Shown piece after piece: positions 4,036 to 47,939 of a stretch of DNA of 64,000 bases. The DNA comes from an uncultured Candidatus Saccharibacteria bacterium (GTDB lineage: Bacteria > Patescibacteriota > Saccharimonadia > Saccharimonadales > CAZDQS01), in assembly GCA_964507855.1 (NCBI GenBank), contig CAZDQS010000005.1, forward strand, positions 6,599-70,598, written 5' to 3'. Both the position numbers and the translations under genes were made by a program. Below the pieces are notes generated by a model. The model ran no database searches, was not told the DNA's origin, and saw nothing but the letters and a program-made list of their open reading frames with translations. Position 1 is the stretch's first letter. Every line of letters starts with the position of its first letter.

Positions 4036-4731
4036 CTACGCTTCGGCTTTTTCTTCTGGGGATCCTTCGCTTTCGTCGCCTGCATTTTCTGTAGGCTCAG
4101 CCTCTGCAGGTGCTTCTGCTTCCGCTGCTCCACCAGCTTCTTCATTAGCTGCTTGCAAAGCACTTGGCTCATAAACAGTAGCGAGCACTTGCTCGGGTTC
4201 GGTGACAATCTCCACACCCTCGGGAATCTCAAGCTCCGCAACCGTAACACTATCTCCGGGGTTTTCTAGGCCTTCCCCGCTAAATGTGAGTACTTCAGGA
4301 AGCTTGCTCGGCAACGCTTTCACTTCTACCGTCTCAAGCCCGCGCAAGACAATCAAGCCAGCCTTCTCTGCGGGCGTTGATTCGTTATCACCCTCAAACC
4401 GGATGTGGACTGGCACTTCAGCCTCAACCTTTTCGTTTGCCTTGACCGCGTTGAAGACGACGTGGCGCAGCGTGTGCTTTTTCGGTTCGAAATCGACATC
4501 CTTAATCATTGCCATGTAGTGCTGTTTGCCGACCTGTAACTGCACTGGCTGGTTCTTTCCGGCCTCCCGGTACGCCCGGATCACGTCTTGGTATGGCGCC
4601 ATAACGTGCACCGAATCCTTGCCATGGTCATGAATAACAGCCGGCACAATACCTTGGGTACGCAAGCCGCGGACTTGCTTGCCTAAAACCTCGCGTTTTT
4701 CGAGCATGAGAGTAAGATTACCGTCGCTCAT
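4036..4731 (-). CDS. rplY: 50S ribosomal protein L25 / general stress protein Ctc, with an acidic Ala/Glu-rich tail
   Basis: The true start is the ATG at 4731 (MSDGNLTLMLEKREVLGKQVRGLRTQGIVPAVIHDHGKDSVHV...), with a GGAGGG Shine-Dalgarno just upstream. The 450-aa track ORF is an artefactual N-terminal extension that overlaps dedA on the other strand. Confidence 0.85.
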   Translation of the reverse strand: MSDGNLTLMLEKREVLGKQVRGLRTQGIVPAVIHDHGKDSVHVMAPYQDVIRAYREAGKNQPVQLQVGKQHYMAMIKDVDFEPKKHTLRHVVFNAVKANEKVEAEVPVHIRFEGDNESTPAEKAGLIVLRGLETVEVKALPSKLPEVLTFSGEGLENPGDSVTVAELEIPEGVEIVTEPEQVLATVYEPSALQAANEEAGGAAEAEAPAEAEPTENAGDESEGSPEEKAEA

Positions 4732-4818
4732 CAGAATTCCCTCCTTCAGATTAGTATAACTATTATACCAAATCGACCCATTAGACTGGACGGAACCGCC
4801 GTTACCCATTAATCTAGT

Positions 4819-5478
4819 ATGAGCATGTTTGATATTGAAGCGATTATCCAATGGGGCGGCATATTTATAATCTCCGCGATAGTCTTTGCCGAATCCGGCC
4901 TGCTGGTTGGTTTTTTCCTGCCGGGTGACACGCTGCTCTTCGGTGCTGGCCTGGCTGCATCGCAGGGTGAATTTTCTCTGCCGCTCCTTATTATTGCCGT
5001 CGTCGTCGCGGCCATCATTGGTGACAATGTCGGCTACAGTATCGGGCGCCGCGCCGGCTCCCGGATTTTCAGCAAAAAAGACGGCATATTGTTTCGCGCT
5101 GAATACATGGATAAAGCAGAAGAGTTTTATAAAAAGCACGGCGGCAAGACGATTGTCATTGCCCGGTTTACGCCAATTGTGCGCACCTTTGCGCCTGTCG
5201 TCGCCGGCGCGAGCAAGATGCCGCGCGAACGATTTATGTTCTTCAATATCTTTGGCGGCCTCCTGTGGGGCGCCGGTATGCCGCTGCTTGGCTACTTCAT
5301 CGGCAGTAAGATCCCGCACCTCGATGAATATATCGAGGTCGTTATCCTCGGTGTTGTCGTTGCCAGCATTGGCCTTGCACTTTTGCACCTGCTCAAAGAC
5401 CCCAAAACCCGCGCTATTCTATGGGACCGCTTCAAACTAGGCCTTCGGAACATTGCACTCAACAAGCGCGTAGATTAA
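4819..5478 (+). CDS. dedA: DedA/VTT-family membrane protein
   Basis: 219 aa, multi-pass. Contains the motifs FAESGLLVGFFLPGDTLLF and IARFTPIVRTFAPVVAG, characteristic of DedA (SNARE-associated/VTT domain). Confidence 0.85.
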   Translation: MSMFDIEAIIQWGGIFIISAIVFAESGLLVGFFLPGDTLLFGAGLAASQGEFSLPLLIIAVVVAAIIGDNVGYSIGRRAGSRIFSKKDGILFRAEYMDKAEEFYKKHGGKTIVIARFTPIVRTFAPVVAGASKMPRERFMFFNIFGGLLWGAGMPLLGYFIGSKIPHLDEYIEVVILGVVVASIGLALLHLLKDPKTRAILWDRFKLGLRNIALNKRVD

Positions 5479-6143: not shown

Positions 6144-8948
6144 CATTTTGGAGAGGAATTGGCCGGTGTACGACTTGCCGTTCTTGGCAACTTCTTCCGG
6201 TGTGCCGGCAGCAATAACTTGACCGCCTGCGCTGCCACCCTCGGGTCCCATATCAATAATAAAGTCCGCCGCCTTAATGACGTCCAGGTTGTGCTCAATA
6301 ACAACCATGCTGTTGCCGGCATCAACGAGCGCCTGCAGAACATTGAGCAATTTGTCGACATCTGCCATGTGTAAGCCGGTGGTCGGCTCATCAAGAATGT
6401 ATAGCGTTCGTCCTGTCGGTCGCCGCGAAAGCTCGGTTGCCAACTTGATACGCTGCGCTTCACCGCCAGACAACGTGGTGGCTGGCTGACCGAGCCTGAT
6501 GTACCCTAAGCCCACATCAACCAGTGTCTGTAACTTGCGGGCAATGGCCGGAATGTTCTCAAAGAACTCAAGTGCCTGCTCACACGTCATATCGAGCACA
6601 TCGCTAATCGTCTTGCCTTTATAGCTGATCTCTAGCGCCTCGCGGTTGTAGCGCTTGCCTTTACATACTTCACACGGCACATACACATCTGGCAAGAAGT
6701 GCATTTCAATTTTGATAATCCCGTCGCCCGTACAGTTTTCGCAGCGGCCACCCTTGACGTTGAAGCTGAATCGTCCGGGCGAATAACCCCGCAACTTGGC
6801 TTCGGGAACCGTCGCAAACAATTCACGAATGGGCGTAAACAATCCGGTATAGGTAGCTGGATTGGAGCGCGGTGTGCGACCAATAGGTGATTGATCGATA
6901 ACAATTGCTTTGTCGAGATGCTCAATCCCTTCAATGTCATCGTGCTTGCCTGGCACGAGATTGGCCCGATGGAGCCGCGCTTGCAACTCTTTCGCCAAAA
7001 TGTCATTGATGAGGCTGGATTTGCCAGAGCCCGAAACACCACTGACCACGACAAGCTTGCCAAGTGGAATCTCAACATCAACACCGCGGAGGTTGTTTTC
7101 GCGAGCGCCTTTCACCGCAATCACCTTGCCGTTACCGGTGCGACGCTTGCGCGGCACAGTGATTGTTTTTTTACCGCTCAAGTACTGCCCTGTGATACTT
7201 TGCTCATTTCGCGCTACCTCATCAGGCACACCTTGCGCAACTATCTGCCCGCCGTGGACGCCGGCACCCGGGCCAATATCAAGCAAGTAATCAGCCGTCC
7301 GAATAGTGTCCTCGTCATGTTCCACGACAATGACCGTATTGCCAAGGTCACGCAGGTGCTTCAACGTACTAATCAACCGCTCGTTATCGCGCTGGTGCAG
7401 ACCAATAGAAGGCTCGTCCAAGACGTAGAGTACGCCCTGCAAGCCAGAACCAATCTGCGTCGCCAGGCGAATACGCTGCGCCTCACCACCAGAAAGGGTC
7501 GTCGCACTCCGGGCAAGATTAAGATAATTAAGGCCCACGTCTTGCATGAATTTCAGCCTCGCACAAATTTCTTTCAGTATTTGCTGGGCGATATGCTTTT
7601 CCTTTTCGTTCAGCGGCATGTTGGTAAAGAAATCGAGCGCGTCATCAATCGACAGCTCACACAGATCCATGATCGACTGCCCGGCGACTGTAATTGCCAG
7701 GACTTCGGGCTTCAAACGCCGGCCTTTGCAGGCGTGACATGGACGCTCTTGCATGAAGCGCTCAATATCCCGCCGCATAAAATCACTCTCAGTTTCCTTA
7801 TGGCGTCGCTCCAGGTTCGGTATGACACCTTCGTACGTCGTATCAAAGCTACGACCAACACCAAGCGACACTTTGTAGGTTTCGTTGCCGGTACCATAGA
7901 GAATCTTGTCCAGCTGGTCAGTAGTAAGTTCCGAGGTTGGTACATGCAAACTGAAGTTGTGGCGGTCAGCGACAGCTTGCAGCTTCTTCATATACCAGGC
8001 GTCGGTGTTAATACGGTTAAAAGGACGTATCGCCCCTTCGGCAATCGTCAACCGGCCATTGGGGATAACAAGCTCCGGGTCGACCTCAAGCCGCGAGCCA
8101 AGGCCGGTACAAACCGGACATGCGCCATGCGGACTGTTAAAGCTAAAGGTCCGCGGCTCCAGCTCCGGAATCGCCACGTCAGGGTGGTCGATACAAGCGT
8201 ACATCAAGCTATAGTGGAACACCTCATCGGTATCGGCATTGAGCACTGCTACTTTGCCGTCTGCCACGTCCAGCGCCTGTTCAACTGATTGCGCCAGACG
8301 GCCACGGTTCTCTTCATTATTGACTAAGCGATCAGCAACAATTTCAATCGTATGCTTGTAGTTCTTATCAAGTTCCGGAAATTCATCAAGTGCATACACC
8401 ACACCATCCACGCGGGCACGGGCAAAGCCCGCTCTCGTGTATTGCTCCGGGATGTGCTCAAAGGCACCCTTCTTGTCTGTCACGACCGGTGCGAGAACAA
8501 TAAGCCGAGCACCTTCCGAAAGCGAAGCAATCTGGTCAACAATAGCTGTTGACGTCTGCCGTGTGACCGGCTTGCCGCAGACGGGACAATGCGGCACACC
8601 AATCCGTGCAAACAATAATCGAAGATAGTCATAAACTTCCGTAACCGTCGCCACCGTCGAGCGCGGGTTACGGCTGGTAGATTTCTGGTCAATGCTAATC
8701 GCCGGTGACAAACCATCAATTTGATCGACATCCGGCTTTTCCATCATGCCCAAGAATTGCCGGGCGTAGGAACTCAAGGACTCGACGTACCGCCGCTGCC
8801 CTTCGGCGTAAATAGTATCAAAGGCCAAACTAGACTTGCCCGAACCACTCAAGCCCGTAATGACCACTAGCTTTTCGCGGGGAATCTCAACATTAATATT
8901 TTTGAGGTTATGCTCCCGCGCCCCCTGAACCTTTATCGAGTCGCTCAT
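6138..8948 (-). CDS. uvrA: Excinuclease ABC subunit A (UvrA)
   Basis: 936 aa. Two ABC ATPase modules ([14 protein letters not shown] and [13 protein letters not shown]; LSGGEAQR twice) plus the zinc-finger Cys clusters CPVCG and [10 protein letters not shown]. Confidence 0.97.
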
Positions 8949-11682: not shown

Positions 11683-14025
11683 CTAGAACGATACCGGACG
11701 GAGTCGCCGGATGACCACGTAGGCACCAGCTGGAGTTGCCAGAACAAGTGCGCTTAGCCCAGCAAAGGCTACGTTGAGCGTTCGGCCGGATGCACCTGCC
11801 CATGGTCGGAGTACTGCGTTGCGGACCCGTTCAAAGGTGCCCAGGTCGTTCTTCACCTCGACCGGCGTTACCGTCGTGGTCCTGCCACCGCCGCGGTCGA
11901 CACGAGTCACCTCAAGCTCACATTCGCCGTTCGGCATTGTTGTTGTGTCAACTTCCGTCTCAAATGGTGCGCTTGATGACCTAACCGTTTGACCATTACA
12001 GAGAGTGACCTCTACTCGCTCCACTTCGCTTTCTTCATTCTTCGGAACACCAGGGCCGACAACACTTGGACCGGATATGGTCGTACCTGGCGTCACGCGG
12101 ACTGGCTCAGCGTTCGGATTCTTCGGCTTGACTGTCACGGGTGGCTTGTTTGGCTTCGGGTTTTCGGGTTGCTGTGATGGGTCGGGGTCAGGATCAGGAT
12201 CAGGGTCGGGGTCAGGATCTGGTGCTGGCGTAGGAGCCGCGTTCGTGGTAACCACAAGTTGCGTGCTTTGTGCGCTCACATTATCTGCCCAGTCCTTTGC
12301 CGCTACCGTGTAGGTATATGTGGTGGAAGGAGAAACACCAGTGTCTTTGTAGGAGTTTGTGGCAGTTGTAGCAATCTCTTCACTATTTCGGTACACGATG
12401 TATGCTACATCTTCACCCTGCTTGTTGTCCGTACTTTTGTTCCAGACAAGTCCTACTTCGTTATGTGAGTACGCACTTGTTTTCAGGCCAGTTGGCACTG
12501 AAGGAGCTTCGGTATCAGGCTGTTCGGCGGGTGGTGCATTGACCGTTACGTGTACTACGTTACTTTCCGTCTCATTGCCTGCTGCGTCGCGTACGACCAC
12601 CCGGAAGGCAATACTGCCGCTTAAGCCCTCTGTCTCGAAGTTATGATTATAGGGGCTGCTTGTGTCAGTCTTCAGTAGCACGTTACCGTTGTAGAACTTC
12701 ACGGATTCGATATCTCCGCTGTCATCAGTAACTACGGCCACGAGGTCAATATTAGTGCCTGCAGTTACCGTAGTTGGGAAAGCCGTAAAGGATGTTACTA
12801 CCGGTGGAGTCGTGTCAGCTGGATCATTTACCGTCAAGGTCTTCGGAGCGCTGGTCGTGTTGTTGCCAGCCTCATCATACGCCTTTGCTGTCAGATTATG
12901 TGTACCGGCAGCTACGCTTGTCGTTGAGTAAGTATAGCTCCAATTCGGGCCTGTTGTATCAGTATGTATCAGCTGCGTACCGTTATAGAACTCGACTTTA
13001 GTTACACCCTCATTGTCCGATGCTGTAGCTGTGAGCGTCACACTCTCGCCGGCAGTGATCGTAGCCGGGCTCACCGTCAGATTAACATTAGTCGGCGCCT
13101 CGGTATCAGGTTCTTCAACTTGTTCTTCGTTTACTGTTATCGTGACGGGGCTACTGTCAGCGTTATTGCCAGCTGCATCAAATGCACGGGCAAAAACAGC
13201 ATGTTGACCAGACTTGCCTGTCGTACTGTAACTATGTGTATATGGTGCGTTTGTGTCCTCGCCGAGCTTGGTCGAGCCTTCGTAGAACTCTATCCTTTGG
13301 ATACCAACGTTATCTTGGGCGGTAGCCGTGAGGGTTACCGACTCTCCTGCCGTAACTGTTGTCGGTTCGGCACTGATTGTTACTTCGGTTGGCTTGGTCG
13401 TATCGGGCGGCGCAGAAAGAGCAACCGTTGCACTTTGCTTCGTGCCCGCCTCGTTAATAAACTGCGTAGGATTGTCGGGATCAACGCGCGTCAACTGGGT
13501 TTCGCTACCAAAAGCCACGCTTGCACTACCACTGCTTGCAAGTGCCTTGAAGGTCACCTTAGCAATAAGCTTGTCTCCGGATATTAGGCTCGTATGATAG
13601 CGCATAATCGTCACACTGCCGCTGCCGCCAGTGCTGACAACATCATTCGGAAATGCGCTCTCAGTTCCATCGATTGAAACAAATTGCAGCAAGTTTGACG
13701 GATAGTTGAGGTATACTTCTACACCATCAACGCCCACCGGACTATCCATACGTACGTCAAGCGTTACATTTTGGCCTTCTACAACAGTTGGGCTTGCCGG
13801 GACGAGTGAAAGCGTCGCACTTCCTGCTGCGCGAGTCTGCAACCAGATGAAAAACGCACCCACTACGCCTAAGGTTATGGCGAGTACAAGATAGGTCTTC
13901 CAGGGACGGGTTTTTGAGGCGAATAGGCTTTTGCGGGCTGTTTTACTGCTGGTTCTTGATGTTCGTGCCGCCATGGTGCTCGGGTTCCTTTTCTTTCCTT
14001 GTGATTTTTTGTGTTGAGTTTTCAT
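11683..14025 (-). CDS. Surface protein: N-terminal signal-anchor, cohesin-like domain, 3 tandem Ig-like repeats, FN3, (PD)7 linker, Ig-like domain and C-terminal TM tail
   Basis: 780 aa. The basic N-terminus and TM end in WLQTRAAGSATLSL. The cohesin-like block spans aa ~68-182 (G.NVTLDVRM...VDGVEVYLNYP..LQFVSID...GDKLIAKVTFKALASSG). Three ~95-aa repeats carry T.TAGESVTLTATA.DN.G....EFY.G. An FN3-like block (PTGL...YIVYRN...YTYTVAAKD) follows. The C-terminus is LRPWAGASGRTLN, a TM helix, then IRRLRPVSF. Confidence 0.85.
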   Translation of the reverse strand: MKTQHKKSQGKKRNPSTMAARTSRTSSKTARKSLFASKTRPWKTYLVLAITLGVVGAFFIWLQTRAAGSATLSLVPASPTVVEGQNVTLDVRMDSPVGVDGVEVYLNYPSNLLQFVSIDGTESAFPNDVVSTGGSGSVTIMRYHTSLISGDKLIAKVTFKALASSGSASVAFGSETQLTRVDPDNPTQFINEAGTKQSATVALSAPPDTTKPTEVTISAEPTTVTAGESVTLTATAQDNVGIQRIEFYEGSTKLGEDTNAPYTHSYSTTGKSGQHAVFARAFDAAGNNADSSPVTITVNEEQVEEPDTEAPTNVNLTVSPATITAGESVTLTATASDNEGVTKVEFYNGTQLIHTDTTGPNWSYTYSTTSVAAGTHNLTAKAYDEAGNNTTSAPKTLTVNDPADTTPPVVTSFTAFPTTVTAGTNIDLVAVVTDDSGDIESVKFYNGNVLLKTDTSSPYNHNFETEGLSGSIAFRVVVRDAAGNETESNVVHVTVNAPPAEQPDTEAPSVPTGLKTSAYSHNEVGLVWNKSTDNKQGEDVAYIVYRNSEEIATTATNSYKDTGVSPSTTYTYTVAAKDWADNVSAQSTQLVVTTNAAPTPAPDPDPDPDPDPDPDPSQQPENPKPNKPPVTVKPKNPNAEPVRVTPGTTISGPSVVGPGVPKNEESEVERVEVTLCNGQTVRSSSAPFETEVDTTTMPNGECELEVTRVDRGGGRTTTVTPVEVKNDLGTFERVRNAVLRPWAGASGRTLNVAFAGLSALVLATPAGAYVVIRRLRPVSF
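12178..12222 (-). repeat. Hexanucleotide (GAYCCN)-type tandem repeat encoding the (Pro-Asp)7 linker
   Basis: The plus strand reads tgggtcggggtcaggatcaggatcagggtcggggtcaggatctgg, which on the minus strand encodes PDPDPDPDPDPDPDP. Confidence 0.9.
12532..13395 (-). repeat. Three tandem in-frame Ig-like domain repeats of ~95 aa each, inside the 780-aa surface protein
   Basis: By hand alignment, aa 211-498 form three copies of P..V.....P.T.TAG..V.L.A...D..G....(E/K)FY.G......D...P......T.......H......A.D.AGN.....P.T.TVN. Confidence 0.8.
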
Positions 14026-14043
14026 GCTGTTTCTTCTTATGCG

Positions 14044-14889
14044 CTATAAGCTTCGGAGCGCATTTGTGACGATGGAGACATCACCGATGGTAATCTTGCC
14101 GTCACCGTTCAGGTCACCATTACCTCGGGTTACTGTTGCAGGTGGATTGCGTAAGCTGTTTAGGATGATTGAGATATCACCGATAGTAACTCGCCCGTCA
14201 CCATTTACGTCACCGATGACTTCTGTGTCACCACCAGAGAAGGTAATCGTGCTGTTCGTCTTTCCGCCCAGGATATCACTGCTATCTGTTGAACGGGCCA
14301 CTATAGAGCCATTATCGATGGAAACTGTGGCGGTGCCTGAACTTGCCAGTGCCTTGAACGTAACTCTTGCTATTAGCTTGTCGCCACTGATACTCTTTGT
14401 GCTACTCTCGGGGTCAGCATAACGTACGATGGTGACCTTTCCGTTACCGCCCGTACACCAGTTCGGGATGGGGTTACTTTGATGTTCCACACACTTCGAG
14501 AGCGCGCTGTTAGTGCTATCAATGCCGACAAACTCCAGCTTGTCCGTAGGATAGGTAAGGCTGGTATGGACAACATTGACCGGATCGCTACCGCTATTCA
14601 TACGGAGGTCAACAGTTACGTTCGATCCAGCCTCTACACTCGCAGAACTCAATGTCAGTGTCGCGTTGCCGGCTGCATAGCTTCTGGTCAAGAGGATTGC
14701 TGCCGCAATAACGCCTACGCCAACCAGCCCAAGAGCAATAAGCTTCCATGGCTTTGCTTTCTGTGTAGGGAACAGTCTACTGCGGCTGGTTTTGCTGGAT
14801 TTTTTTGATTTCACTGTTTGGTTCCTTTGCTTTATGCTGTGCTTCTTAGTGGCGTGTCCTTTTGATGTAGTCTGTCTTCGTGCTGGCAT
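14044..14889 (-). CDS. Surface protein: N-terminal signal-anchor, cohesin-like domain and C-terminal type-I-like dockerin
   Basis: 281 aa. It has the same N-terminal architecture as its neighbours (TRSYAAGNATLTLSSASVEAGSNVTVDLRMNS...GDKLIARVTFKALASSG). The C-terminus has two calcium-loop-like segments, GDVNGDGRVTIGDISIILNSL and GDLNGDGKITIGDVSIVTNAL, which is the dockerin duplicated F-hand pattern. Confidence 0.8.
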   Translation of the reverse strand: MPARRQTTSKGHATKKHSIKQRNQTVKSKKSSKTSRSRLFPTQKAKPWKLIALGLVGVGVIAAAILLTRSYAAGNATLTLSSASVEAGSNVTVDLRMNSGSDPVNVVHTSLTYPTDKLEFVGIDSTNSALSKCVEHQSNPIPNWCTGGNGKVTIVRYADPESSTKSISGDKLIARVTFKALASSGTATVSIDNGSIVARSTDSSDILGGKTNSTITFSGGDTEVIGDVNGDGRVTIGDISIILNSLRNPPATVTRGNGDLNGDGKITIGDVSIVTNALRSL

Positions 14890-15152
14890 TTTGTTTATCC
14901 ATACTTCCCGTTAAATCAACAGCATGCACAGCAACTTCTCAGAATGACGCACGACAGAAGCACGACCTATATACTCCTGCCTGCCAACTAGTGGCTTTTG
15001 GTCTTCTTTGCTACTACTGTGTTTAGTTTTCATATCGTGGTTACGCATGGTTCGCATGCTCGTTAATACTTACCACTACTGTAGCGCACTTCATGCAGGC
15101 GTCAATAGTTTTTATGCTTACTTTTGTGTTTTTCAGAGTTTGCATAGGTACC

Positions 15153-16361
15153 TCAGAAGGAGATTGGTTTAAACCTCCGGATTGCTAGCACAGCGCCAAC
15201 GGCCAGTACCCCCAGGGCAGGTACCGAAATTATGGCATTCAGCACCCGACCTGATGTCCCTGCCCACGGCTTCAAGATTGAGTTCCGGACTGTCTCAAAA
15301 GCACTTAATTTGTTGTCGATCGTAACTTCACGGCTCGATACAGTCGTTGAGTCATCGGCATTCACGGTACGCAACGTAATGGTATAAGCCCCGTTCGCGA
15401 ACGTCGTCGTATCCAGATCTGTTTCAAAAGGCGCCTTCTTCATTGTTGTTACCAGGCGGCCGTTTACAAGCAACTCGACCCGTTCGGTATTTGCATCTGC
15501 AGTTTTGCTCTTTACCTTTATGACACCGGATATTTTATCCAGCTCGTTGAGGCTATTGAGCTCGTCGTTCACATCATCGGTATTTCCGCCACCGGACGAA
15601 TCATCGCCTGCGTCGTCTGAATTGCCCTGCTGATCTTCACCTGAATCATCAGAAGAGCCCGGCTGGTTACTTCCGCCGCCCGCTGATGGCCTCGGCGAAG
15701 TAGGTGCTGGAGATGGCGATCCGGAAGGAGGAGTCGGGTTGGTCGGTGGATTCGGTGTTGCAGGCGGCGGAGAAGGTGGTGGCGTGCTTGATTGTGTCGT
15801 AAAGGTAACGGTTGCGCCGTTCATAACACCTGCTTCGTTAATAAACTGTGTGGGATTGTCAGGATCGGCGTGTGTCAGCTCGGTATTGGCACCGAAAGTT
15901 ACATTGGCGCTGCCAGTGCTTGCCAGCGCTTTGAAAGTAACGCGCGCAATGAAAACATTGCCGCTTACGAGGCTTGTGGAGTAGCGTATAACTGTTATGG
16001 ATCCGCTGCCACCGCTATTGACAACATCTATCGGAAAGGCGCTGCCGGACGTGCTTGTAGAAACAAACTGAAGGTGGGTCGCAGGATAACTAAGATATAT
16101 CTCCGCGCCGTCGACGCCAACCGGACTGTTCATGCGTATATCAAACGAGACATTTTGTCCGGTTACGACTGTTGGACTGGCGGGAGAAAGAGACAGGGTA
16201 GCGCTCCCAGCGGCTCGGGTCTGGAACCAAAAGAAGAGGACGAGAACGGCGCCCAAGGCAATAAGCAATACAGATAACGGGCCCCATGACTTAGCCTTAT
16301 ACTTGCTTGGAAGAACTGATGTTTTGCGGGCTCTGGATACTTTTTTGTTTCGGGATGCCAT
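15153..16361 (-). CDS. Surface protein: N-terminal signal-anchor, cohesin-like domain, Pro-rich and acidic linkers, Ig-like domain and C-terminal TM tail
   Basis: 402 aa. Starts FWFQTRAAGSATLSLSPASPTVVTGQNVSFDIRMNSPVGVDG.... Has a PPPSPPPATPNPPTNPTPPSGSPSPAPTSP linker. The C-terminal domain and tail are homologous to those of the 780-aa protein (APFETDLDTTTFANG...ETVRNSILKPWAGTSGRVLN, a TM helix, then IRRFKPISF). Confidence 0.85.
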   Translation of the reverse strand: MASRNKKVSRARKTSVLPSKYKAKSWGPLSVLLIALGAVLVLFFWFQTRAAGSATLSLSPASPTVVTGQNVSFDIRMNSPVGVDGAEIYLSYPATHLQFVSTSTSGSAFPIDVVNSGGSGSITVIRYSTSLVSGNVFIARVTFKALASTGSANVTFGANTELTHADPDNPTQFINEAGVMNGATVTFTTQSSTPPPSPPPATPNPPTNPTPPSGSPSPAPTSPRPSAGGGSNQPGSSDDSGEDQQGNSDDAGDDSSGGGNTDDVNDELNSLNELDKISGVIKVKSKTADANTERVELLVNGRLVTTMKKAPFETDLDTTTFANGAYTITLRTVNADDSTTVSSREVTIDNKLSAFETVRNSILKPWAGTSGRVLNAIISVPALGVLAVGAVLAIRRFKPISF

Positions 16362-16467
16362 CCTAATTTATCCTGTTATTGGTTTACTTTTTGCTTAAGG
16401 TAAGTGTAAACGTTTTTTGCGATAACCACAAGCCTAAAGCCTAGCTGCCCTCATGGAGCTTATTGGC

Positions 16468-17133
16468 TTACTTTTTGTTGCCTTTGCCTTTGCCTTTGCC
16501 CTTGCCGCCACCGCCATTGTCGCTGTTTCCGCTGTTGCCAGCATTCTGCTTAGAGAGCTTGACTGTTGCCCCGTTCTTGTCGCCAAGTTCATTGATGTAC
16601 TGCGAAGGATTTTGTGGGTCCGCCCTTGTAAGCTCGCTTTCTGATCCAAATCCAACGGTTGCACTACCCTTGTTGCCCAGCGCCTTAAACGTTACTGTCG
16701 CAATCAGCTGGTCACCGCTTATCAGCTCAGAAGCATATCGCATGATAGTAACCCGCCCTTCGCCGCCGCTGCTAAACGCTTCCGATGGGAAGGCACTGTT
16801 ACTGGTATCGGTAGTAACGTATTCCAGCTGCTTGGTCGGGTACTGAAGATACGCAGCTGCTCCATCAACCCCTACCGAACTATTCATTCGAACCTCAAAG
16901 CTCACGGTGCTATTCTGTGCCACCGATGTGCTCAAAGGGGATAGATAGAGGGTGGCATTCCCAGCTGCACGGGTCTGGAACCAGAATAGTGCGGCCGTCA
17001 TAACCCCAGCGACTATGGCAAGAATATAGAGCGGTAGCCGTGAAGCGGCTGCACGATTACGCGGGAAAATTTCACGTCGACGAGTCGTTACAGAGCCCTT
17101 GCTACTCTTTGTATTTTTTTGTTGCTTTGGCAT
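16468..17133 (-). CDS. Short cohesin-like surface protein with a Gly/Lys-rich C-terminus
   Basis: 221 aa. Contains FWFQTRAAGNATLYLSPLSTSVAQNSTVSFEVRMNSSVGVDG...GDQLIATVTFKALGNKG and ends GGGGKGKGKGKGNKK. A GAGGAAA Shine-Dalgarno lies 5 nt upstream of the ATG. Confidence 0.8.
   Translation of the reverse strand: MPKQQKNTKSSKGSVTTRRREIFPRNRAAASRLPLYILAIVAGVMTAALFWFQTRAAGNATLYLSPLSTSVAQNSTVSFEVRMNSSVGVDGAAAYLQYPTKQLEYVTTDTSNSAFPSEAFSSGGEGRVTIMRYASELISGDQLIATVTFKALGNKGSATVGFGSESELTRADPQNPSQYINELGDKNGATVKLSKQNAGNSGNSDNGGGGKGKGKGKGNKK
16480..16507 (-). repeat. Hexanucleotide (GCCTTT)3-4 tandem repeat encoding the (Gly-Lys)n tail
   Basis: The plus strand reads gcctttgcctttgcctttgcccttgcc. The repeat is in-frame, so slippage would change the tail length but not the reading frame. 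Confidence 0.85.
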
Positions 17134-24377: not shown

Positions 24378-27300
24378 ATGCTAGTGTTTCCCCTAAAAAA
24401 GAATGTGATGAAGCTATTAGAATTGGGACGATTATTATCGAGACGGCTGCAGCCTCACCTCCGCACACTCCTGAAATTATGGGTGCGACACAATTCATTG
24501 CGGACAAGATTACTCTGTGGCCTTATAGTCTGCATCTTGGTCTTCAGCTTCTTTAGCCTTTTCCAGCCTCGGCGCGCCAAAGCAGAAATAACCTTCGGCG
24601 CCATAGGCTCAATTACGGCTACATCGGATAACTCATTCAGTGTCGCGTATCCCAGCGGCATTTCGGCTGGCGATATGCTAGTACTGCTTGTTGCCAATAA
24701 ACAACCCCAGAACTCATCCCACTCGACTCCATCTGGCTGGACCGCCCCCGCAAATTATCATGCAGTCACCAGTGACATTGCTGGTGCGGCCGACCAAGGT
24801 AACGTAGAAATGCTCGTATTCCTCAAAGAAGCCGATGGCACCGAATCAGGCTCCGCCACCGTTTCTATTGGCGGTAATAATGTGTCTTACGCTGCCATAG
24901 CACGCTATTCAAAATCTCCGGGGACCATCTGGAGCTACAGCTTATCGCAGGGCATCGATATAACCGAGGGTACCAGCTGGTCGGTAAGCGGCAACGTAGA
25001 TCCCGGCATCGAGCCAGGCGACATTATCGTGGCGGCATCAGCAATCAACACTGATGGCCGCACCTTTTCATCTCAAGCTGTGACAAGCCCTGGCGTAACG
25101 TTCACTGATAATAATGAACGACACGACGGTGGCTCAAGTGTTGGCCAGGACATTGGCATGGTTGTGTCTGATCATGTAGCGTCAATCGGCGCCTCCTCTG
25201 GCAACCCCACCTACACTATGACTGCCAATGGATCGGGCACCAATAACCCTCTTGGTGGTACAGTACTTATCCGCCTGAGGGCACAATTTCCTGCCCCCTT
25301 GCTTAATCAAGCCGCTTTCCGCTGGTATGCAAACGCAGACAACGTCCAGCCTGGGACGGCTTTGACTGGAGAAAATGCAACTGCTTTGTCAAAAACCAGT
25401 GCTCCTGTGCGACTCCGGATGGGTGTCGACACATCAATCAACGACCTCTTGGCAGCAAGCCAACAATACAAACTCCAATATACGACGGATGTAAACGGTA
25501 GCTGGACAGATGTAGCCTCAGGCATTTGGTATGACCCTGAGTGGTCCTCCCGCCGCAAGATAACCCTGGACAACTCAGCCTCCAGCGAGAATCTCATAGA
25601 CTTCCCAATTCGAGTGTCCCTGACCAGCAACGAGATAGACTACGACAAAACCAAGAATAATGGTGAAGACATTCGCTTCGTTGATGGTGACGGTACGCTC
25701 CTGTCGCATGAGATTGAGGTCTGGGACGAGAACGGCGCCAGTGAGGTCTGGGTCAAGGTGCCGCAGATTGATGCCGGCAGTACGACAGACTTCATCTGGA
25801 TGTACTACGGCAATGCCGAGGCTAGTGACGGCCAAAACGCGAACGATGTGTGGAGCAATGGGTACGCCGGCGTCTACCATATGAACCAGGACCCGTCCGG
25901 CAGTGCACCGCAGATTCTCGACAGCACCACGAACGGTCGTCACGGTACGAGCGCCGGCAGCATGACAAGCGGTGACTTAGTTGCTGGTCAGATTGGGTTT
26001 GGTATTGATTTTGACGGCTCCAACGATGCCATCCAGATCTCCGGATTAATGGACAGTCCGAGCCAATTGACTATGTCAGCATGGATCAGCGCCGACGGCC
26101 TCGGCAGTAGCGATTACTCCGACATTGTATCGCTCGGCGACCACGCTTTCATACGTATGGAAGATAGCGGGATTTTATCCGAATACTACTACGGCTCTGA
26201 CTGGCATGACCTGTGGGCCGAGAAAGACACACTGAACCTCGGCTTTATACACATCGCCGCCGCCTTCAGTCCCAGCACCAGTCGCCAACAGCTCGTCGTG
26301 AATGGCGGCCTCGAAGATACTACCGCTCACAATAATGCTATCAACTGGAGCGGCCTAGGATCTAATACGTTCATTGGACGCCAGGGCAACGGCAGCAGCA
26401 GTTACTACACAAACGGCGTCATCGACGAAGTACGGTTTGCCAGCATCGCCCGCTCAGCCGACTGGATGACAGCCGAATACAAGAGTATGGCCAACACCAT
26501 GAATACAATTGGAGGTGAAGAGGTTCCCGCGGAATGGAAATACTACGACAACCCCTCCGTAAACGATGGCGCCACCATCAGCACCGCCCTCCTGTCCGGC
26601 GACCCCGTACCGCAGTCATACAACGAATCACACCCCACTGTTACCAATCCCAACCAAGTTACCGCCGGCGATCGCACTGAGTGGGATTTTGCCCTCGATC
26701 CTGCTGATGCGGCGGCCGACACAACGTACTATTTCCGCATCGTCAAAGAGAATGGCGCTCCCCTGGATGCTTACAGCCGCTATGCTTCCATATATATTTC
26801 TAATGCAACGTTTGATCAATCCGCTTACCGCTGGTTTGAGAACGATAACACAGAAAGCGGAGTCGAAGATTGGTACAACGCCTCGTGGGCAAAGCGCAAA
26901 CTCATTACTATCGACAGCGCAAAAGTGCCGTCTGCTCAAACCGATTTCCCTGTCCTCATCCACCTGGCAAGCGACGGCGACCTAGCGGCCAGCGCCCAAA
27001 ACGATGCTGATGACATCCTCTTTACAACCGCCGACGGACAAACAAAGTTAAGTCACGAAATCGAAACATATAATGCCGGTACCGGGGAGCTCGTAGCGTG
27101 GGTAAAAGTACCGATGCTCTCCAGTGACACCGATACCGTCCTACACATGTACTATGGCAATGCTCTTGCTGCCAATCAAGAAAATGCCAGCGACGTATGG
27201 AGCAACGGCTACGCCGCCGTCTGGCACATGGCGGAAGATCCCTCATCATCAGTCGATGGCGCTTGTGGCGGAGGAACCGTTGAAGTTTGTGATTCAAAAA

Positions 27301-30300
27301 ACAGCAACCACCTGGACAGTATCGGCATGGACGCTGATGACCTCATTGCCGGCAAAATCAACGGTGCGACCAGGTTCAATAGCAATACAGAGTATTTATC
27401 AGCACCCTCCGACCCATCACTTGAAGGTTTTAGTGAACTTACATTGAGCGCGTGGATTAACCCCACCGCTGACCCAGGGAGCGACGACGGACGCATTATC
27501 CACAAATCCCAAGGACTAACGAGCGATGACTATCACATAGCTTATGATGGCGCCGGTGCCGGCAAGTATGGTATCAATTTCCGAATTAGCACAGATAACA
27601 AAACCACCACTGCTGCCAGTAACTTGACGATTGCGCCCAATTCAGGATGGCACTATGTGCAAGGTGTATGGGATGGCAGCAATATGACTATCTATATCAA
27701 CGGCTCCAACGACAGTGGCAACGCTAATACTGGTACGCTCACCAACTCTAGCGAGGGCTTGGGCATAGGTCGGCATGTCAATTCTGATACCCGTAATTTT
27801 AACGGCCATATTGACGAGCCCCGCGTATCTTCTGTGGTACGTAGCGCAGACTGGATCACTACTGAGTACAACAACCAAGGCTCACCGGAAACCTTTTACG
27901 CAATCAGTGATGAAGAAGAACAGAACCTTGACTGGTACAACCCCGACTGGTCCGCCCGCCGCAAAATAACCCTGGATAACGCTGCCTCCGGTGAGCATCT
28001 GCTGGACTTCCCGATCCGGGTGTCGCTGACATCGGATGAGATAGACTACGCCAAGACGAAAGCCAATGGTGAAGATATCCGCTTTGTTGATGGCGATGGG
28101 ACCCTGCTGTCCCATGAGATAGAAACCTGGAATGAGGGTGGGACGAGTGAAGTCTGGGTCAAGATACCGCAGATTGATGCCGGCAGTACGACTGACTACA
28201 TATGGATGTACTATGGTAACCCCAGTGCCAGTGATGGCCAGAACGCCAGTGATGTCTGGAGCAATGGCTATGTGGGGGTATGGCACTTAAATGAGGACTT
28301 GACCGGAGCTTGCACCGGTACCAAAGAGGTGTGCGATTCGAGCTCCTCCGCCAACCATGCCGACGCAGATGCTGGCATGACCCCTGATGACTCCGTAAGC
28401 GGCAAGATTGGCACGGCCATGGATTTTGATGGTGGCAGTACGGATATTATTGAGGCGGGAGCAAATAATATACCAAGTTCAACCGCCCAAAAGACGATAA
28501 GCGCCTGGTTCAAGTACTCATCATTGCCATCGACCGCACAACAAGTTGTGTCAATTTTTGATGGGAGTGGAAGCGGAACATTTAACGGCTCGCATACCCT
28601 CACCGGGTGTTCCGGTGCCAGCTGGGGTACATGGCGCTTCGGCGGCCCATGGCTAGCCTGCGGGGCACAACCGTCTACCGGCACCTGGCATCATCATACA
28701 TACACCTTTAATGGAACCAACAACACTCTTTACGTTGATGGCAGCTTTATTCAAACAACGACGCAGGCGCCAAATGCAGCTGCTACGCCCACAAGGGTCG
28801 GTATCGGCTTCTATCGAAATACCTCAAACCTGCCGCGCGAGGTATTCGAAGGACAGATCGACGAAGTCCGTATCGAGACTATAGCCCGCTCAGCCGACTG
28901 GATTGAAGCCCAATACAACACCATGAACAACACCATGAATACGTTTGGCAACGAAGAATATTACGGCTTAGCCCAGGTCGGCACCCCGCTCGCCGACCAG
29001 GACACAGCCACCACGGCACCGGCTCAAGGCACGCCGTTCAGATTACGCATGACCATGCATGTCGGCAACGGACAGCTGAGTGCCGGCACAGGCAGCTTTA
29101 AACTCCAATACGCTGAGCGGGCAGACTCCTGCGATACCAGCTTCATCGGAGAGTCCTACAGTGATGTCGCGACCGACACCGGCACCATCCGCTACTACGA
29201 TAACTCCAATCTGACTGACAACATGCCCTTGCTCAGCCACGCTGACGACCCCGTCCACGCCGAACACACGACCATCAACCAGGCATATGAAGAGGCCAAT
29301 AACCTCACCAACATAGCAACAATTTCGTCAGGCGAAGACGGTATGTGGGACTTTGCGCTAGTGGACCATGCAGCTTCCGCCGGTACAACTTACTGCTTTA
29401 GAATTGTTAAATCTGACGCAACATTACTTGACAGCTACACCGTCATAGCAGAAATAACCACCGCGTCCGATAGCAGCAATACCGCACCAAACGACCCTTT
29501 AATCTTGTCGCAAAAGAAAACCGATGACACAAACCTTACAGTAGGACAGTGGGTCAGCGATACAAGCATTAAGTTCACCGCTACGGCAGATGACGCTGAC
29601 GAGACCGATACTCTGTATCTGTGTGTCGAAGCTGACCACATAAGCACCGCTTTCAGTAACACAGAAGACGAGTGCGGCGAGGGTGTAGCGTTTTCTGGAA
29701 CGGAAGTAAGTGTCAGCGTCACGCTCAACGATCTCGATGATGCGCAGGAGTATCACTGGCAAGTCCGTATTAAAGACGCCTCTGGCGCGTACTCAGCATG
29801 GGTTAGTTACGGAAACAACCAGGAATCGGACCGCGATTTCGGCCTCGACACCACCGCCCCCACCGGCGGCAACGTATACGACGGAGCGAATGCAGGCATA
29901 GACATCGAGTTTAACGATGGCTCACTTTCGAGCCTGTCGGCAAATTGGGCAAATTTCAATGCTGATGCTTCCGGGCTGCAAAAGTACCAGTACGCCATCG
30001 GAACAACGGTCGGTGGGACCGATATCAAAGACTGGACCGATCACGGCACCAATACATCAATAACAGTCTCTGACCTGACACTCCATACATCACAGATATA
30101 TTACGTATCAGTCCGTGTACATGATAATGCCGGCAATTACAGTACCGTCACGTCAGACGGCCAAGTTGTGGAGCCATCGCTTGATTTCAGCATATCTAGC
30201 AGTAACGCGACCTTCACCAACCTCAACGCCGGCAATTCCTATACCGCAACCACATCCACGACACTTACCACTTCAACGAACGCATACAACGGCTATACGG

Positions 30301-30677
30301 TGCGTGCCTTTGCTTCAGGCAACCTTGCAGATGCCGCCGGACGGGAAATCGGCATGTTTGATGGCGGCACCTACGAGAACCCCGACGGTTGGCAAGGTGG
30401 TGACACGGGCTTTGGCTACACGTCCAATGACACAACCATCCAAGGCATCAATAAGTTCAGCCCAGCAACCTGCGCCGGCGGCAACAGCCCACCGTGTTAT
30501 TCACCGTTTACCATATCTTCGCCGGGAGATATCGTTGCCGATCACACCTCGCTCGTCACCGGCACGTCAATTGTTAACGAAGAATTTGTTATCACCTATC
30601 GCGTCACTACCAGCGCTCTGCAGGCATCCGGCGTCTATTCAAACGCAATTATTTATACTATTCAGGCACTTTACTAA
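24378..30677 (+). CDS. Giant secreted surface protein: N-terminal signal-anchor, jelly-roll domains, three DUF2341+LamG (ConA-like lectin) modules, beta-sandwich/FN3-like modules and a C-terminal WxL-like domain shared with neighbouring genes
   Basis: 2,099 aa. The N-terminus LLCGLIVCILVFSFFSLFQPRRAKA is a signal/TM segment, and an alternative start lies at 24408. There are three copies of W(S/A).R(R/K)(K/L)IT(L/I)D......L.DFP....L......D....GEDIRF.D.DGT.LSHEIE.W........VWVK.P......D.I.MYYGN (the DUF2341 pattern). Each is followed by a LamG-like block ending G.IDE.R......RSADWI..EY. The last ~170 aa are homologous to ORFs 31788-32885, 40380-41432, 41487-42809 and 42887-43660. Confidence 0.9.
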   Translation: MLVFPLKKNVMKLLELGRLLSRRLQPHLRTLLKLWVRHNSLRTRLLCGLIVCILVFSFFSLFQPRRAKAEITFGAIGSITATSDNSFSVAYPSGISAGDMLVLLVANKQPQNSSHSTPSGWTAPANYHAVTSDIAGAADQGNVEMLVFLKEADGTESGSATVSIGGNNVSYAAIARYSKSPGTIWSYSLSQGIDITEGTSWSVSGNVDPGIEPGDIIVAASAINTDGRTFSSQAVTSPGVTFTDNNERHDGGSSVGQDIGMVVSDHVASIGASSGNPTYTMTANGSGTNNPLGGTVLIRLRAQFPAPLLNQAAFRWYANADNVQPGTALTGENATALSKTSAPVRLRMGVDTSINDLLAASQQYKLQYTTDVNGSWTDVASGIWYDPEWSSRRKITLDNSASSENLIDFPIRVSLTSNEIDYDKTKNNGEDIRFVDGDGTLLSHEIEVWDENGASEVWVKVPQIDAGSTTDFIWMYYGNAEASDGQNANDVWSNGYAGVYHMNQDPSGSAPQILDSTTNGRHGTSAGSMTSGDLVAGQIGFGIDFDGSNDAIQISGLMDSPSQLTMSAWISADGLGSSDYSDIVSLGDHAFIRMEDSGILSEYYYGSDWHDLWAEKDTLNLGFIHIAAAFSPSTSRQQLVVNGGLEDTTAHNNAINWSGLGSNTFIGRQGNGSSSYYTNGVIDEVRFASIARSADWMTAEYKSMANTMNTIGGEEVPAEWKYYDNPSVNDGATISTALLSGDPVPQSYNESHPTVTNPNQVTAGDRTEWDFALDPADAAADTTYYFRIVKENGAPLDAYSRYASIYISNATFDQSAYRWFENDNTESGVEDWYNASWAKRKLITIDSAKVPSAQTDFPVLIHLASDGDLAASAQNDADDILFTTADGQTKLSHEIETYNAGTGELVAWVKVPMLSSDTDTVLHMYYGNALAANQENASDVWSNGYAAVWHMAEDPSSSVDGACGGGTVEVCDSKNSNHLDSIGMDADDLIAGKINGATRFNSNTEYLSAPSDPSLEGFSELTLSAWINPTADPGSDDGRIIHKSQGLTSDDYHIAYDGAGAGKYGINFRISTDNKTTTAASNLTIAPNSGWHYVQGVWDGSNMTIYINGSNDSGNANTGTLTNSSEGLGIGRHVNSDTRNFNGHIDEPRVSSVVRSADWITTEYNNQGSPETFYAISDEEEQNLDWYNPDWSARRKITLDNAASGEHLLDFPIRVSLTSDEIDYAKTKANGEDIRFVDGDGTLLSHEIETWNEGGTSEVWVKIPQIDAGSTTDYIWMYYGNPSASDGQNASDVWSNGYVGVWHLNEDLTGACTGTKEVCDSSSSANHADADAGMTPDDSVSGKIGTAMDFDGGSTDIIEAGANNIPSSTAQKTISAWFKYSSLPSTAQQVVSIFDGSGSGTFNGSHTLTGCSGASWGTWRFGGPWLACGAQPSTGTWHHHTYTFNGTNNTLYVDGSFIQTTTQAPNAAATPTRVGIGFYRNTSNLPREVFEGQIDEVRIETIARSADWIEAQYNTMNNTMNTFGNEEYYGLAQVGTPLADQDTATTAPAQGTPFRLRMTMHVGNGQLSAGTGSFKLQYAERADSCDTSFIGESYSDVATDTGTIRYYDNSNLTDNMPLLSHADDPVHAEHTTINQAYEEANNLTNIATISSGEDGMWDFALVDHAASAGTTYCFRIVKSDATLLDSYTVIAEITTASDSSNTAPNDPLILSQKKTDDTNLTVGQWVSDTSIKFTATADDADETDTLYLCVEADHISTAFSNTEDECGEGVAFSGTEVSVSVTLNDLDDAQEYHWQVRIKDASGAYSAWVSYGNNQESDRDFGLDTTAPTGGNVYDGANAGIDIEFNDGSLSSLSANWANFNADASGLQKYQYAIGTTVGGTDIKDWTDHGTNTSITVSDLTLHTSQIYYVSVRVHDNAGNYSTVTSDGQVVEPSLDFSISSSNATFTNLNAGNSYTATTSTTLTTSTNAYNGYTVRAFASGNLADAAGREIGMFDGGTYENPDGWQGGDTGFGYTSNDTTIQGINKFSPATCAGGNSPPCYSPFTISSPGDIVADHTSLVTGTSIVNEEFVITYRVTTSALQASGVYSNAIIYTIQALY
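25531..25880 (+). repeat. Internal direct repeat copy A (DUF2341 module 1), paired with 27937-28286
   Basis: By hand alignment of about 116 residues, the encoded peptides are roughly 80% identical. The DNA is visibly similar over long runs, for example ggtgaagacattcgcttcgttgatggtgacggtacgctcctgtcgcatgagat versus ggtgaagatatccgctttgttgatggcgatgggaccctgctgtcccatgagat. Confidence 0.85.
27937..28286 (+). repeat. Internal direct repeat copy B (DUF2341 module 3), paired with 25531-25880
   Basis: See copy A. Module 2 (about 26868-27230) is much more diverged. Confidence 0.85.
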
Positions 30678-31650: not shown

Positions 31651-31787
31651 CGTAAAGTTTTCCACAGCCTGTACGAGGTTGGTAGTATGCCACCTCGTCT
31701 AATGCCAGAAAAAGCTTGTGGCATACCGTCAATTGGGCTATAAATAGAGGGAGTATTAATTTGCGATTCTCCAGGGGTAACAACACT

Positions 31788-32885: not shown

Positions 32886-32965
32886 TAACCTGCCCTCCCT
32901 ACTTCTACTTGGGATTAGGGGCTTGTGTCTGTTATTATTCTTGGAGAGAAACGGATAGCAACATC

Positions 32966-33889: not shown

Positions 33890-33894
33890 CAAGG

Positions 33895-35268: not shown

Positions 35269-35298
35269 ACAACCAGCCTCGAGCTACGCTTCCCAGAC

Positions 35299-37197: not shown

Positions 37198-37253
37198 ACC
37201 GTCATTGTAACAGAGGTAACTTTGTGCTCAAAACCAAAAATGGCGTATATGGC

Positions 37254-38315: not shown

Positions 38316-38356
38316 ATCTGGCCTACCCTACCATGTTTATGCTAAAAAAGCTACCC

Positions 38357-39220: not shown

Positions 39221-39332
39221 ATTGCTTCCCTTGTGTTTTCTTCATGGGAATCGCCATTTTCACCCCTTACTTTACAGGCATAAGCGAAAATCTGCAAAGC
39301 GCCAGCCCTAAGAAGCCGATGATAGACGCGAG

Positions 39333-40298: not shown

Positions 40299-40379
40299 CG
40301 TTTTCCTCATACCCCTTTTGTTTGCCTTATTGATGTTCAGTATAGCATGCACAAGCTTTACTTTTGAACCAAATATCTT

Positions 40380-41432: not shown

Positions 41433-41486
41433 TCTTTATATGATACGTGAAATAGCATACAACCGTAAGCGGTTTCTCGTTGGCTC

Positions 41487-42809: not shown

Positions 42810-42886
42810 GCTTTTTACCTTTTTGTTTTTATAGTGCTCGTGGTTAACTTACCACAATAAATCTGGACCTGCAAGCATATTTTATG

Positions 42887-43660: not shown

Positions 43661-43693
43661 GCTTATGCCTAGTATACCGCATCGCGGCAACCG

Positions 43694-44389: not shown

Positions 44390-44442
44390 AGTATGATATA
44401 CGCTAACAAGCCGCTAGTGGCAGAAATTCCAAAAAAATCACC

Positions 44443-45777: not shown

Positions 45778-47935
<2,158 letters not shown>

Positions 47936-47939
<4 letters not shown>

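Follow-up and report, generated by a model that had tools for sequence, protein, structure and literature searches.

The 64-kb window analysed here, a stretch of contig CAZDQS010000005.1 from an uncultured Candidatus Saccharibacteria bacterium, encodes two neighbouring surface proteins of 780 and 402 amino acids (aa) that share a C-terminal tail composed of a conserved motif, one hydrophobic transmembrane (TM) helix and a short basic end. Comparison with other proteins indicates that this tail is a real, portable and previously undescribed module, predicted to anchor proteins at the cell surface. Both genes belong to a row of four tandem paralogs, all on the minus strand, which occupies positions 11683-17133 between obgE and the exonuclease I gene; the tail is present in two of the four. 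An initial annotation of this DNA had given the coordinates and sequences of the two tails exactly, but the strand needs correction, as both genes lie on the minus strand and their plus-strand translations are full of stops.

The gene for the 780-aa protein (11683-14025, minus strand) is an open reading frame (ORF) whose product ends in FERVRNAVLRPWAGASGRTLNVAFAGLSALVLATPAGAYVVIRRLRPVSF. From the N-terminus, its parts are a signal peptide, a cohesin-like domain, four to five Big_7 immunoglobulin (Ig) domains, an fn3-like region, a Pro/Asp-rich linker, a terminal Ig domain, a juxtamembrane box, the TM helix and the basic tail. Pfam analysis matched Big_7 with an E value of 2.3e-43 over five stretches of the protein. 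The terminal Big_7-type Ig-like domain (aa 668-725; 11851-12024, minus strand) could be aligned in all nine members of the family described below and was modelled as a beta-sandwich by AlphaFold2, which placed the strands at module residues 3-59. It is followed by the 26-residue box NDLGTFERVRNAVLRPWAGASGRTLN (aa 726-751; 11773-11850, minus strand), with a predicted short amphipathic helix and then a PWAG-x-SGR-x-LN loop, by the small-residue-rich hydrophobic helix VAFAGLSALVLATPAGAYVVI (aa 752-772; 11710-11772, minus strand), located by a Kyte-Doolittle scan and by AlphaFold2, and by the basic, presumably cytoplasmic tail RRLRPVSF (aa 773-780; 11686-11709, minus strand), with the stop codon at 11683-11685. 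The version of this protein that begins at the first ATG was absent from a collection of 15 billion proteins, although its neighbouring proteins were present, and M18 of the 780-aa protein aligns with M1 of the 402-aa paralog. The deposited call for this gene may start at M18, which would give a protein of 763 aa.

The gene for the 402-aa paralog (15153-16361, minus strand) is an ORF whose product, identical to library protein P0001, ends in FETVRNSILKPWAGTSGRVLNAIISVPALGVLAVGAVLAIRRFKPISF. It consists of a signal peptide, a cohesin-like domain, a low-complexity linker rich in Pro, Ser, Gly and Asp, a terminal Ig domain, the box, the TM helix and the basic tail. The terminal Ig-like domain (aa 292-349; 15315-15488, minus strand) was delimited by alignments and by a Pfam Big_7 match (E value, 1.3e-6); the match to Big_7 (PF17957) over aa 277-329 reached 29.3 bits and passed the gathering cutoff of 24.1. 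The box NKLSAFETVRNSILKPWAGTSGRVLN (aa 350-375; 15237-15314), the hydrophobic helix AIISVPALGVLAVGAVLAI (aa 376-394; 15180-15236) and the basic tail RRFKPISF (aa 395-402; 15156-15179) follow on the same strand. The last 59 and 57 residues of the 780-aa and 402-aa proteins have 29 identical positions, and their C-terminal regions of approximately 120 residues are similar with a BLASTP E value of 2e-23. Their N-terminal domains share 62% identity. The hydrophobic segments have mean Kyte-Doolittle values of 1.85 and 2.50 over 19 residues. Thus, the layout of motif, TM helix and basic tail described in the initial annotation was confirmed, and its hydrophobic segment is real by both Kyte-Doolittle analysis and AlphaFold2. 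Within the window, a six-frame motif scan and a hidden Markov model (HMM) scan of all ORFs confined the tail to these two ORFs.

The two remaining paralogs of the row lack the tail. The 281-aa product of 14044-14889 (minus strand) has a signal peptide, a cohesin domain (Pfam Cohesin E value, 9.6e-12) and a C-terminal type I dockerin (Dockerin_1 E value, 3.5e-12), and is homologous to the N-terminal domain of the 402-aa protein (E value, 3e-26). The product of 16468-17133 (minus strand) has a signal peptide, a cohesin domain (Pfam Cohesin E value, 1.5e-7) and a short Gly/Lys-rich end, and shares 52% identity with the same N-terminal domain (E value, 9e-66). In the 402-aa and 780-aa proteins, the N-terminal domain did not itself match the Pfam Cohesin model; it is read as cohesin-like based on this homology to two paralogs that do match it. 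Overall, the row looks like a minimal, membrane-anchored, cellulosome-like set of cohesin and dockerin proteins in a probable Saccharimonadales genome.

To search for relatives, a tail-only profile of 59 columns built from the two sequences was scored against 1.84 billion representative proteins. Ten proteins were obtained at E values of 0.001 or lower: the 402-aa protein, six true relatives (P0004 to P0009) and three repeat proteins (P0002, P0003 and P0010), which were dropped as artefacts because weak repeat matches had been summed up. The six true matches scored 36-41 bits (E values, 1.6e-5 to 2.8e-4), and the matched stretch ended 10-56 residues before the C-terminus. Because a profile of the tail alone found six further proteins, always near the C-terminus, the similarity of the tails is due to descent and not to chance. 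The initial annotation had regarded occurrence in the two paralogs only, with no wider family, as fatal to its proposal; this is not the case, as seven more proteins with unrelated passenger domains carry the tail.

The seventh relative was obtained with a 39-bit degenerate DNA pattern that fits all nine members. In metagenomes this pattern gave two matches, one by chance and one true, the latter encoding a 642-aa protein on a 12-kb contig (L005). Among 185,579 species-representative genomes of GTDB it gave three matches, of which two were due to chance and one (L001) was P0006 found again, in a metagenome-assembled genome labelled as a Candidatus Saccharimonadales bacterium; L001 is the only genome with this label in which a family member was placed. 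The number of chance matches was about as expected, and no match was found in viral contigs. A peptide pattern, [VF]RN[WAS][LVI][LF][RK]PWA, yielded ten raw matches in the GTDB genomes, none of which was confirmed. Word-indexed homology searches with the tail, with the two-sequence module and with an eight-sequence module returned no matches even though the searched collection contains members, and these negatives are no evidence of absence. The census of nine proteins, in eight clusters at 90% identity, is therefore a lower bound. The family is small and rare: nearly all its members are singletons from metagenome-assembled genomes or metagenomes, with two copies of the module in the 64-kb window and one on each other contig.

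The passengers of the module differ from member to member. P0004 and P0008 carry a right-handed beta-helix (Beta_helix), P0007 a cellulase of glycoside hydrolase family 5 (GH5), P0006 a GH39-like region together with Big_7, P0005 fn3 and CARDB domains, and P0013 Big_7 repeats behind a domain without assignment; no known passenger domain was detected in P0009. The origin of two relatives deserves comment. P0005 has been deposited as a CARDB domain protein of the archaeon Candidatus Nitrosotenuis (L007; GCA_035575635.1, contig DATLXQ010000008.1). The same contig encodes a YkuD-like L,D-transpeptidase, and P0005 shares a long basic signal peptide with the window proteins; this is probably a mis-binned bacterial contig. 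The 11.4-kb contig bearing P0006 (L006) also carries a WhiB-family gene (7798-8043, minus strand). WhiB is typical of Actinobacteria, which are the usual hosts of Saccharibacteria, and its presence could reflect transfer from a host or a binning issue. P0011, on L001, has the same length as P0006 and clusters with it.

Alignment of the nine C-termini showed that the shared unit comprises approximately 115 residues in four parts: an Ig-like domain, the box, the hydrophobic stretch and the presumed cytoplasmic end. The Big_7-type Ig-like domain spans approximately 58 residues with the pattern x-V-DG-x-V ... D-T-[ST]-T-x2-NG-x-H ... V-x-V-x-N. The 26-residue box reads N-[DKN]-L-x2-[FYLV]-E-x-[VIFA]-R-N-x-[LIVT]-[LF]-x-[PH]-[WFL]-A-G-x-S-[GAT]-[RNAS]-x-[LM]-[NS], or in short N-x-L-x3-E-x2-RN-x4-P-[WFL]-AG-x-SGR-x-LN, and its pentapeptide is [RKQMS]-P-[WFL]-A-G across the family. 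Eight residues (N, L, E, R, N, A, G and S) are invariant in the nine boxes; the P, N and aromatic positions are near-invariant, and the spacing to the helix is fixed. The hydrophobic stretch of approximately 20 residues is rich in small residues, and the cytoplasmic end varies from 1 to 47 residues. An HMM of the module matched its members with E values of 1e-40 to 1e-50.

By mean pairwise identity, the two halves of the box stand out, with 51% for the first and 57% for the second, PWAG-containing half; the value is 32% for the Ig domain, 19% for the hydrophobic stretch and 22% for the tail. The motif quoted in the initial annotation is accordingly real, and no other part of the C-terminal region is conserved as well, but the conserved unit is larger than described there, since it includes the upstream half of the box and the terminal Ig-like domain. 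Conservation begins upstream at N-x-L-x3-E-x2-R-N and runs on into the preceding Big_7-type domain, so that the homology starts approximately 60 residues ahead of the motif. The ending IRR(L/F)(R/K)P(V/I)SF holds in both window proteins but not as a feature of the family: the 642-aa relative ends in RRFGWLPF, which is related to the window tails, and RR or RRK directly follows the helix in four members, with weaker versions in P0006 (QKVR) and P0009 (a single K) and long extensions in three. One to 12 residues follow the helix in six of the nine members, and 27, 27 and 47 in the other three. In the nine members, the uncharged span is approximately 19-27 residues, and the best 19-residue window has a moderate mean hydropathy of 1.2-2.5. 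Most of the helices contain Pro or Gly, which are helix-destabilising.

An AlphaFold2 model was made from the nine-sequence alignment; its mean predicted local distance difference test (pLDDT) score was 66, and its secondary structure alone was used. The model has a beta-sandwich at module residues 1-59, a short helix at 65-73 over FERVRNAVL, an exposed loop at 79-85 over PWAGASG with pLDDT below 50, and a long helix at 82-109 over the hydrophobic stretch. Sequence-profile matches in the PDB and Foldseek matches covered the Ig part only, with domains of the PKD, Big and Fn3 types, and no entry of Pfam, NCBIfam or the PDB spans the box. When the tail was compared with NCBIfam, including its curated CTERM sorting models, at E values up to 10, nothing rose above noise; the best match was GVDTG_CTERM, with 11 bits against a cutoff of 29, and no LPXTG-anchor model matched even at this threshold. 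The module thus belongs to no curated CTERM family, in agreement with the view in the initial annotation that the motif differs from those of known sorting signals. Three other types of C-terminal or processing signal were considered and rejected: the type IX secretion (T9SS) C-terminal domain (CTD), for which the match is sub-threshold, a TM helix is present and the organism is monoderm; a type IV prepilin-like site, which would lie at the wrong end of the protein and on the wrong membrane face and lacks Glu at +5; and a PDZ-type C-terminal ligand formed by ...PVSF, the residue pattern of which does not fit.

The N-termini of all nine members show, by inspection, a Lys/Arg-rich n-region, a hydrophobic h-region of 19-24 residues and a small-x-small site 3-8 residues further on. 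Candidate cleavage sites are TRA|AG, SNA|AT, TYA|AT, GRA|AT, SYA|TV and VSA|AG. This is the appearance of cleavable Sec signal peptides that have long n-regions, and not of the signal-anchors that had been proposed. Without a cut in the tail, the two proteins had been argued to be pinned at both ends; this argument consequently loses its force, because removal of the signal peptide would leave plain type I membrane proteins.

A C-terminal TM helix is not peculiar to this family. At least four other secreted proteins of the window end in a plain TM helix and a basic tail without a PWAG box, indicating that the part composed of the helix and the basic cluster is generic here. Two of them, WxLIP-like proteins of 326 and 339 aa, have the pre-TM motif TFWIIP[YW] in common. 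The TM segments of the family contain 52% Gly, Ala, Ser and Thr, compared with 19% in the Leu/Ile/Val-rich segments of the other window anchors (Mann-Whitney p = 0.004, with small samples and segments picked by eye). A cluster of secreted proteins at 31716-45429, adjoining the ATP synthase genes at 45778-49366, has C-terminal features of its own. Four Pfam-negative secreted proteins (31716-32885, 40380-41432, 41487-42809 and 42887-43690) end in T-x-T-[FY]-x-A-x-P-[TV]-[FY]-COOH, and a LamG/DUF2341 protein of 2099 aa at 24378-30677 has a similar C-terminal end. Interleaved in the cluster are WxLIP_PGBD-like proteins (32909-33889 and 39333-40352) and PKD/Big proteins (33895-35268 and 38357-39220), all with C-terminal TM helices. 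The cluster is similar to a recently reported operon for the pam pilus of a bacterium of the Candidate Phyla Radiation (CPR).

A processing enzyme was sought around the module. No gene for a sortase, a rhomboid, a CPBP/Rce1-like protein, an exosortase or another peptidase was found among the ORFs of the 64-kb window scanned against Pfam, and none of these genes lies beside a family member on five other contigs (L005/L010, L006, L007/L008 and L009), which have no neighbour gene in common. The window also encodes, at 61194-62162 (plus strand), a 322-aa protein with six predicted TM segments, a very basic N-terminus and no Pfam match at E values up to 1; it was checked as a possible intramembrane protease, and nothing supportive was found.

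Haft has listed eight attributes of tripartite C-terminal sorting domains, with adjacency of the enzyme and target genes as the fallback for one-to-one systems (10.1101/2023.06.07.544157). Four of the attributes are present in the tail and three are present in part. All members have the TM helix and, by inspection, the signal peptide. Member pairs are dissimilar outside the signal, although every pair shares the adjacent Ig domain, which has to be counted into the module. Homologs occur without the signal or with another C-terminal device, as 14044-14889 ends in a dockerin and 16468-17133 has no anchor. Closeness to the C-terminus is partial owing to the long post-TM tails of three members, the terminal cluster of two to five basic residues is weak in two members, and the motif has invariant residues, yet the homology starts upstream with the Ig-like domain. 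For the copy number, two copies were seen in 64 kb here and one per contig elsewhere. The low-copy fallback failed, because no enzyme gene adjoined a target gene in the window or on the five other contigs.

Taken together, we give an even chance to the reading that a portable C-terminal surface module ends in this tail and is kept as a type I membrane anchor, with the box docking to a partner. The precursor would be exported by Sec and lose its N-terminal signal peptide; the small-residue-rich helix would then stop transfer, and the Arg and Lys residues would stay in the cytoplasm according to the positive-inside rule. The terminal Big_7 Ig-like domain, the amphipathic helix and the PWAG-SGR-LN loop would be placed at the outer face of the membrane, and the Pro-rich linker upstream would take the passenger through the wall, the passenger being a cohesin-like scaffold in the window and a glycoside hydrolase or beta-helix enzyme in other members. 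We infer that the box and the Gly/Ala/Ser/Thr-rich helix pack against a common membrane partner or against themselves, in which case the box would be conserved for packing and not for cutting. For the proteins of the window, this would mean that the module holds two that bear cohesins at the cell, where the adjacent cohesin-dockerin protein could dock onto them. This reading is favoured because the homologous stretch, with an entire Ig-like domain in it, is more than a signal of approximately 30 residues, because the module recurs on different passengers and always near the C-terminus, and because the 27-47 residues after the helix in three of the nine members would be odd for a segment to be removed. 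The combination of signal peptide, C-terminal TM helix and basic tail is also usual among the secreted proteins of the window, the copy number is low, and no enzyme gene was seen in any of the six contexts. In addition, retained C-terminal TM anchors have been predicted for PamC, PamD and PamR of the CPR bacterium Candidatus Mycosynbacter amalyticus (10.64898/2026.03.03.709456; 2026 preprint).

Several points weigh against a retained anchor, and its main rival is a true tripartite sorting signal. After export, a membrane enzyme would recognise the box and cleave within or beside PWAG-x-SG, so that the helix and tail are lost and the protein is passed on to peptidoglycan or a lipid. Conservation peaks just outside the membrane, in the box (51-57%, against 32% in the Ig domain and 19% in the helix), as for an enzyme recognition site, with the A-G-x-S positions invariant; small residues are unusually frequent in the helix, a trait of LPXTG and PEP-CTERM signals; x-P-[WFL]-A-G is formally like LPXTG or LPXAG; PWAGxSG lies in a low-confidence exposed loop of the AlphaFold2 model; no docking partner was identified; and the enzyme search covered 64 kb of the 88.9-kb contig and the neighbours on the other contigs, so that an enzyme gene may lie farther away. 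The layout itself, the signal peptides in all members, the diverse passengers and the paralogs that have no tail or a dockerin in its place would also suit sorting. Sortase family proteins are encoded by more than half of CPR genomes, with a patchy distribution outside Microgenomates (PMC6744442), and dedicated low-copy sorting systems exist, for which adjacency of the enzyme gene is expected (10.1101/2023.06.07.544157). The enzyme would belong to an unknown family or be a sortase whose specificity has shifted to x-P-[WFL]-A-G. However, the gene contexts speak against such a system, as do the copy number, which is one or two per genome as far as visible, the constant pairing of the box with an Ig domain, so that the homology does not start at the motif, the long extensions in three members and the single Lys in another. 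Moreover, the pentapeptide varies at position 1 (R/K/Q/M/S) and is conserved at position 3, opposite to LPXTG, and no LPXTG or CTERM model matches. We therefore consider a sorting signal possible but doubtful; it is unproven, and the balance tips somewhat against it. Its most specific form, in which the box is recognised and cut by a sorting enzyme peculiar to a Saccharimonadales lineage (an undescribed family or a retargeted sortase), and cohesin scaffolds as well as polysaccharide-degrading enzymes are thereby attached covalently to the thin wall of epibiotic cells, is a speculative proposal that we hold to be rather unlikely.

Cleavage without re-attachment has also been considered: the protein would be anchored in the membrane first, and a general protease of the rhomboid, site-1 or signal-peptidase type would cut AG-x-SG and shed it in a regulated manner. 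The flexible, exposed loop of small residues that is modelled right above the membrane and the helix-destabilising Pro or Gly of most members would suit such a protease, and the polysaccharide-degrading passengers would be able to act at a distance. A generic protease site, on the other hand, would not require the conservation of 26 residues, with E, R and N on a helix among them, no such protease was found in the window, and the proposal is purely inferential; we regard it as improbable. It is hardly credible that the tail has no special function and that the similarity reflects only a recent duplication of two neighbouring genes. The genes are indeed close neighbours with similar N-terminal domains, but the box is kept in seven proteins of other assemblies on unrelated passengers and is better conserved than the domain adjacent to it. 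Pure paralogy is excluded by this wider family.

Two further features of the window were recorded. A tmRNA gene at 63232-63627 (minus strand; Rfam RF00023, 91.7 bits) represents the sole Rfam family above its gathering score in the window. The ORF at 4036-5388 (minus strand), listed as 450 aa from a GTG start, has ribosomal protein L25/TL5 domains at aa 229-408; its long N-terminal extension is probably not real, because the L25/TL5 gene call on a near-identical Logan contig (L011) has 231 aa.

Saccharimonadales are among the Patescibacteria that live attached to other bacteria, and the surface proteins of such cells decide host contact and feeding. To our knowledge, little is known about how Saccharimonadales fix proteins to a cell without an outer membrane. 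The module would be an undescribed, portable means of displaying enzymes and cohesin scaffolds on such cells, and it would hold glycoside hydrolases and cohesin-dockerin proteins at the surface of cells of a probable Saccharimonadales lineage. If the box is a cleavage site, it would reveal a sorting system beyond sortase, exosortase, rhombosortase and myxosortase that is new for the CPR, and the HMM would provide a handle to find the enzyme. If the module is a retained anchor only, it would be no surprise but would supply useful annotation for C-termini that are otherwise hypothetical.

Among known systems, the LPXTG/sortase signal of monoderm bacteria resembles the module in Pro at position 2, Gly at position 5, a short spacer, a Gly/Ala-rich hydrophobic segment and Arg/Lys residues. 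The module differs in its variable position 1 and conserved position 3, an invariant Ala in place of Thr, 20 more conserved residues upstream, the Ig domain that always accompanies the motif, some long post-helix tails and the lack of a sortase gene seen nearby. With the GlyGly-CTERM/rhombosortase, PEP-CTERM, PGF-CTERM and MYXO-CTERM domains it shares the tripartite design, small residues (AG-x-SG) before the helix and attachment to unrelated secreted proteins; these domains have another signature, and a low copy number, the lack of an adjacent enzyme and a homology unit of approximately 115 residues set the module apart from them. The T9SS CTD (Por_Secre_tail) is likewise a C-terminal Ig-like beta-sandwich on diverse secreted enzymes, to which a weak, sub-threshold Pfam match was found (E value, 0.11; 13 bits against a cutoff of 27), but it forms the extreme C-terminus, has no TM helix and belongs to diderm Bacteroidota. 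Anchoring scaffoldins of cellulosomes are also cell-fixed cohesin proteins with a dockerin-bearing partner, a candidate for which is encoded next door here; they are held by SLH repeats or LPXTG rather than by a TM module. Plain C-terminal TM anchors, such as those of PamC, PamD and PamR and of the WxLIP-like window proteins, similarly belong to a monoderm CPR cell and join a single TM helix to basic residues in proteins with a signal peptide, and the WxLIP-like pair also has a conserved pre-TM motif. The plain window anchors differ in their Leu/Ile/Val-rich helices and in a pre-TM motif tied to the domain of one family, whereas the PWAG box moves between unrelated passengers. In its presumed function, the module is like the C-terminal anchors of surface proteins in monoderms. 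In layout, it is closest to a cell wall sorting signal, and the evidence places it nearest to the retained TM anchors that have been predicted in envelope proteins of the CPR.

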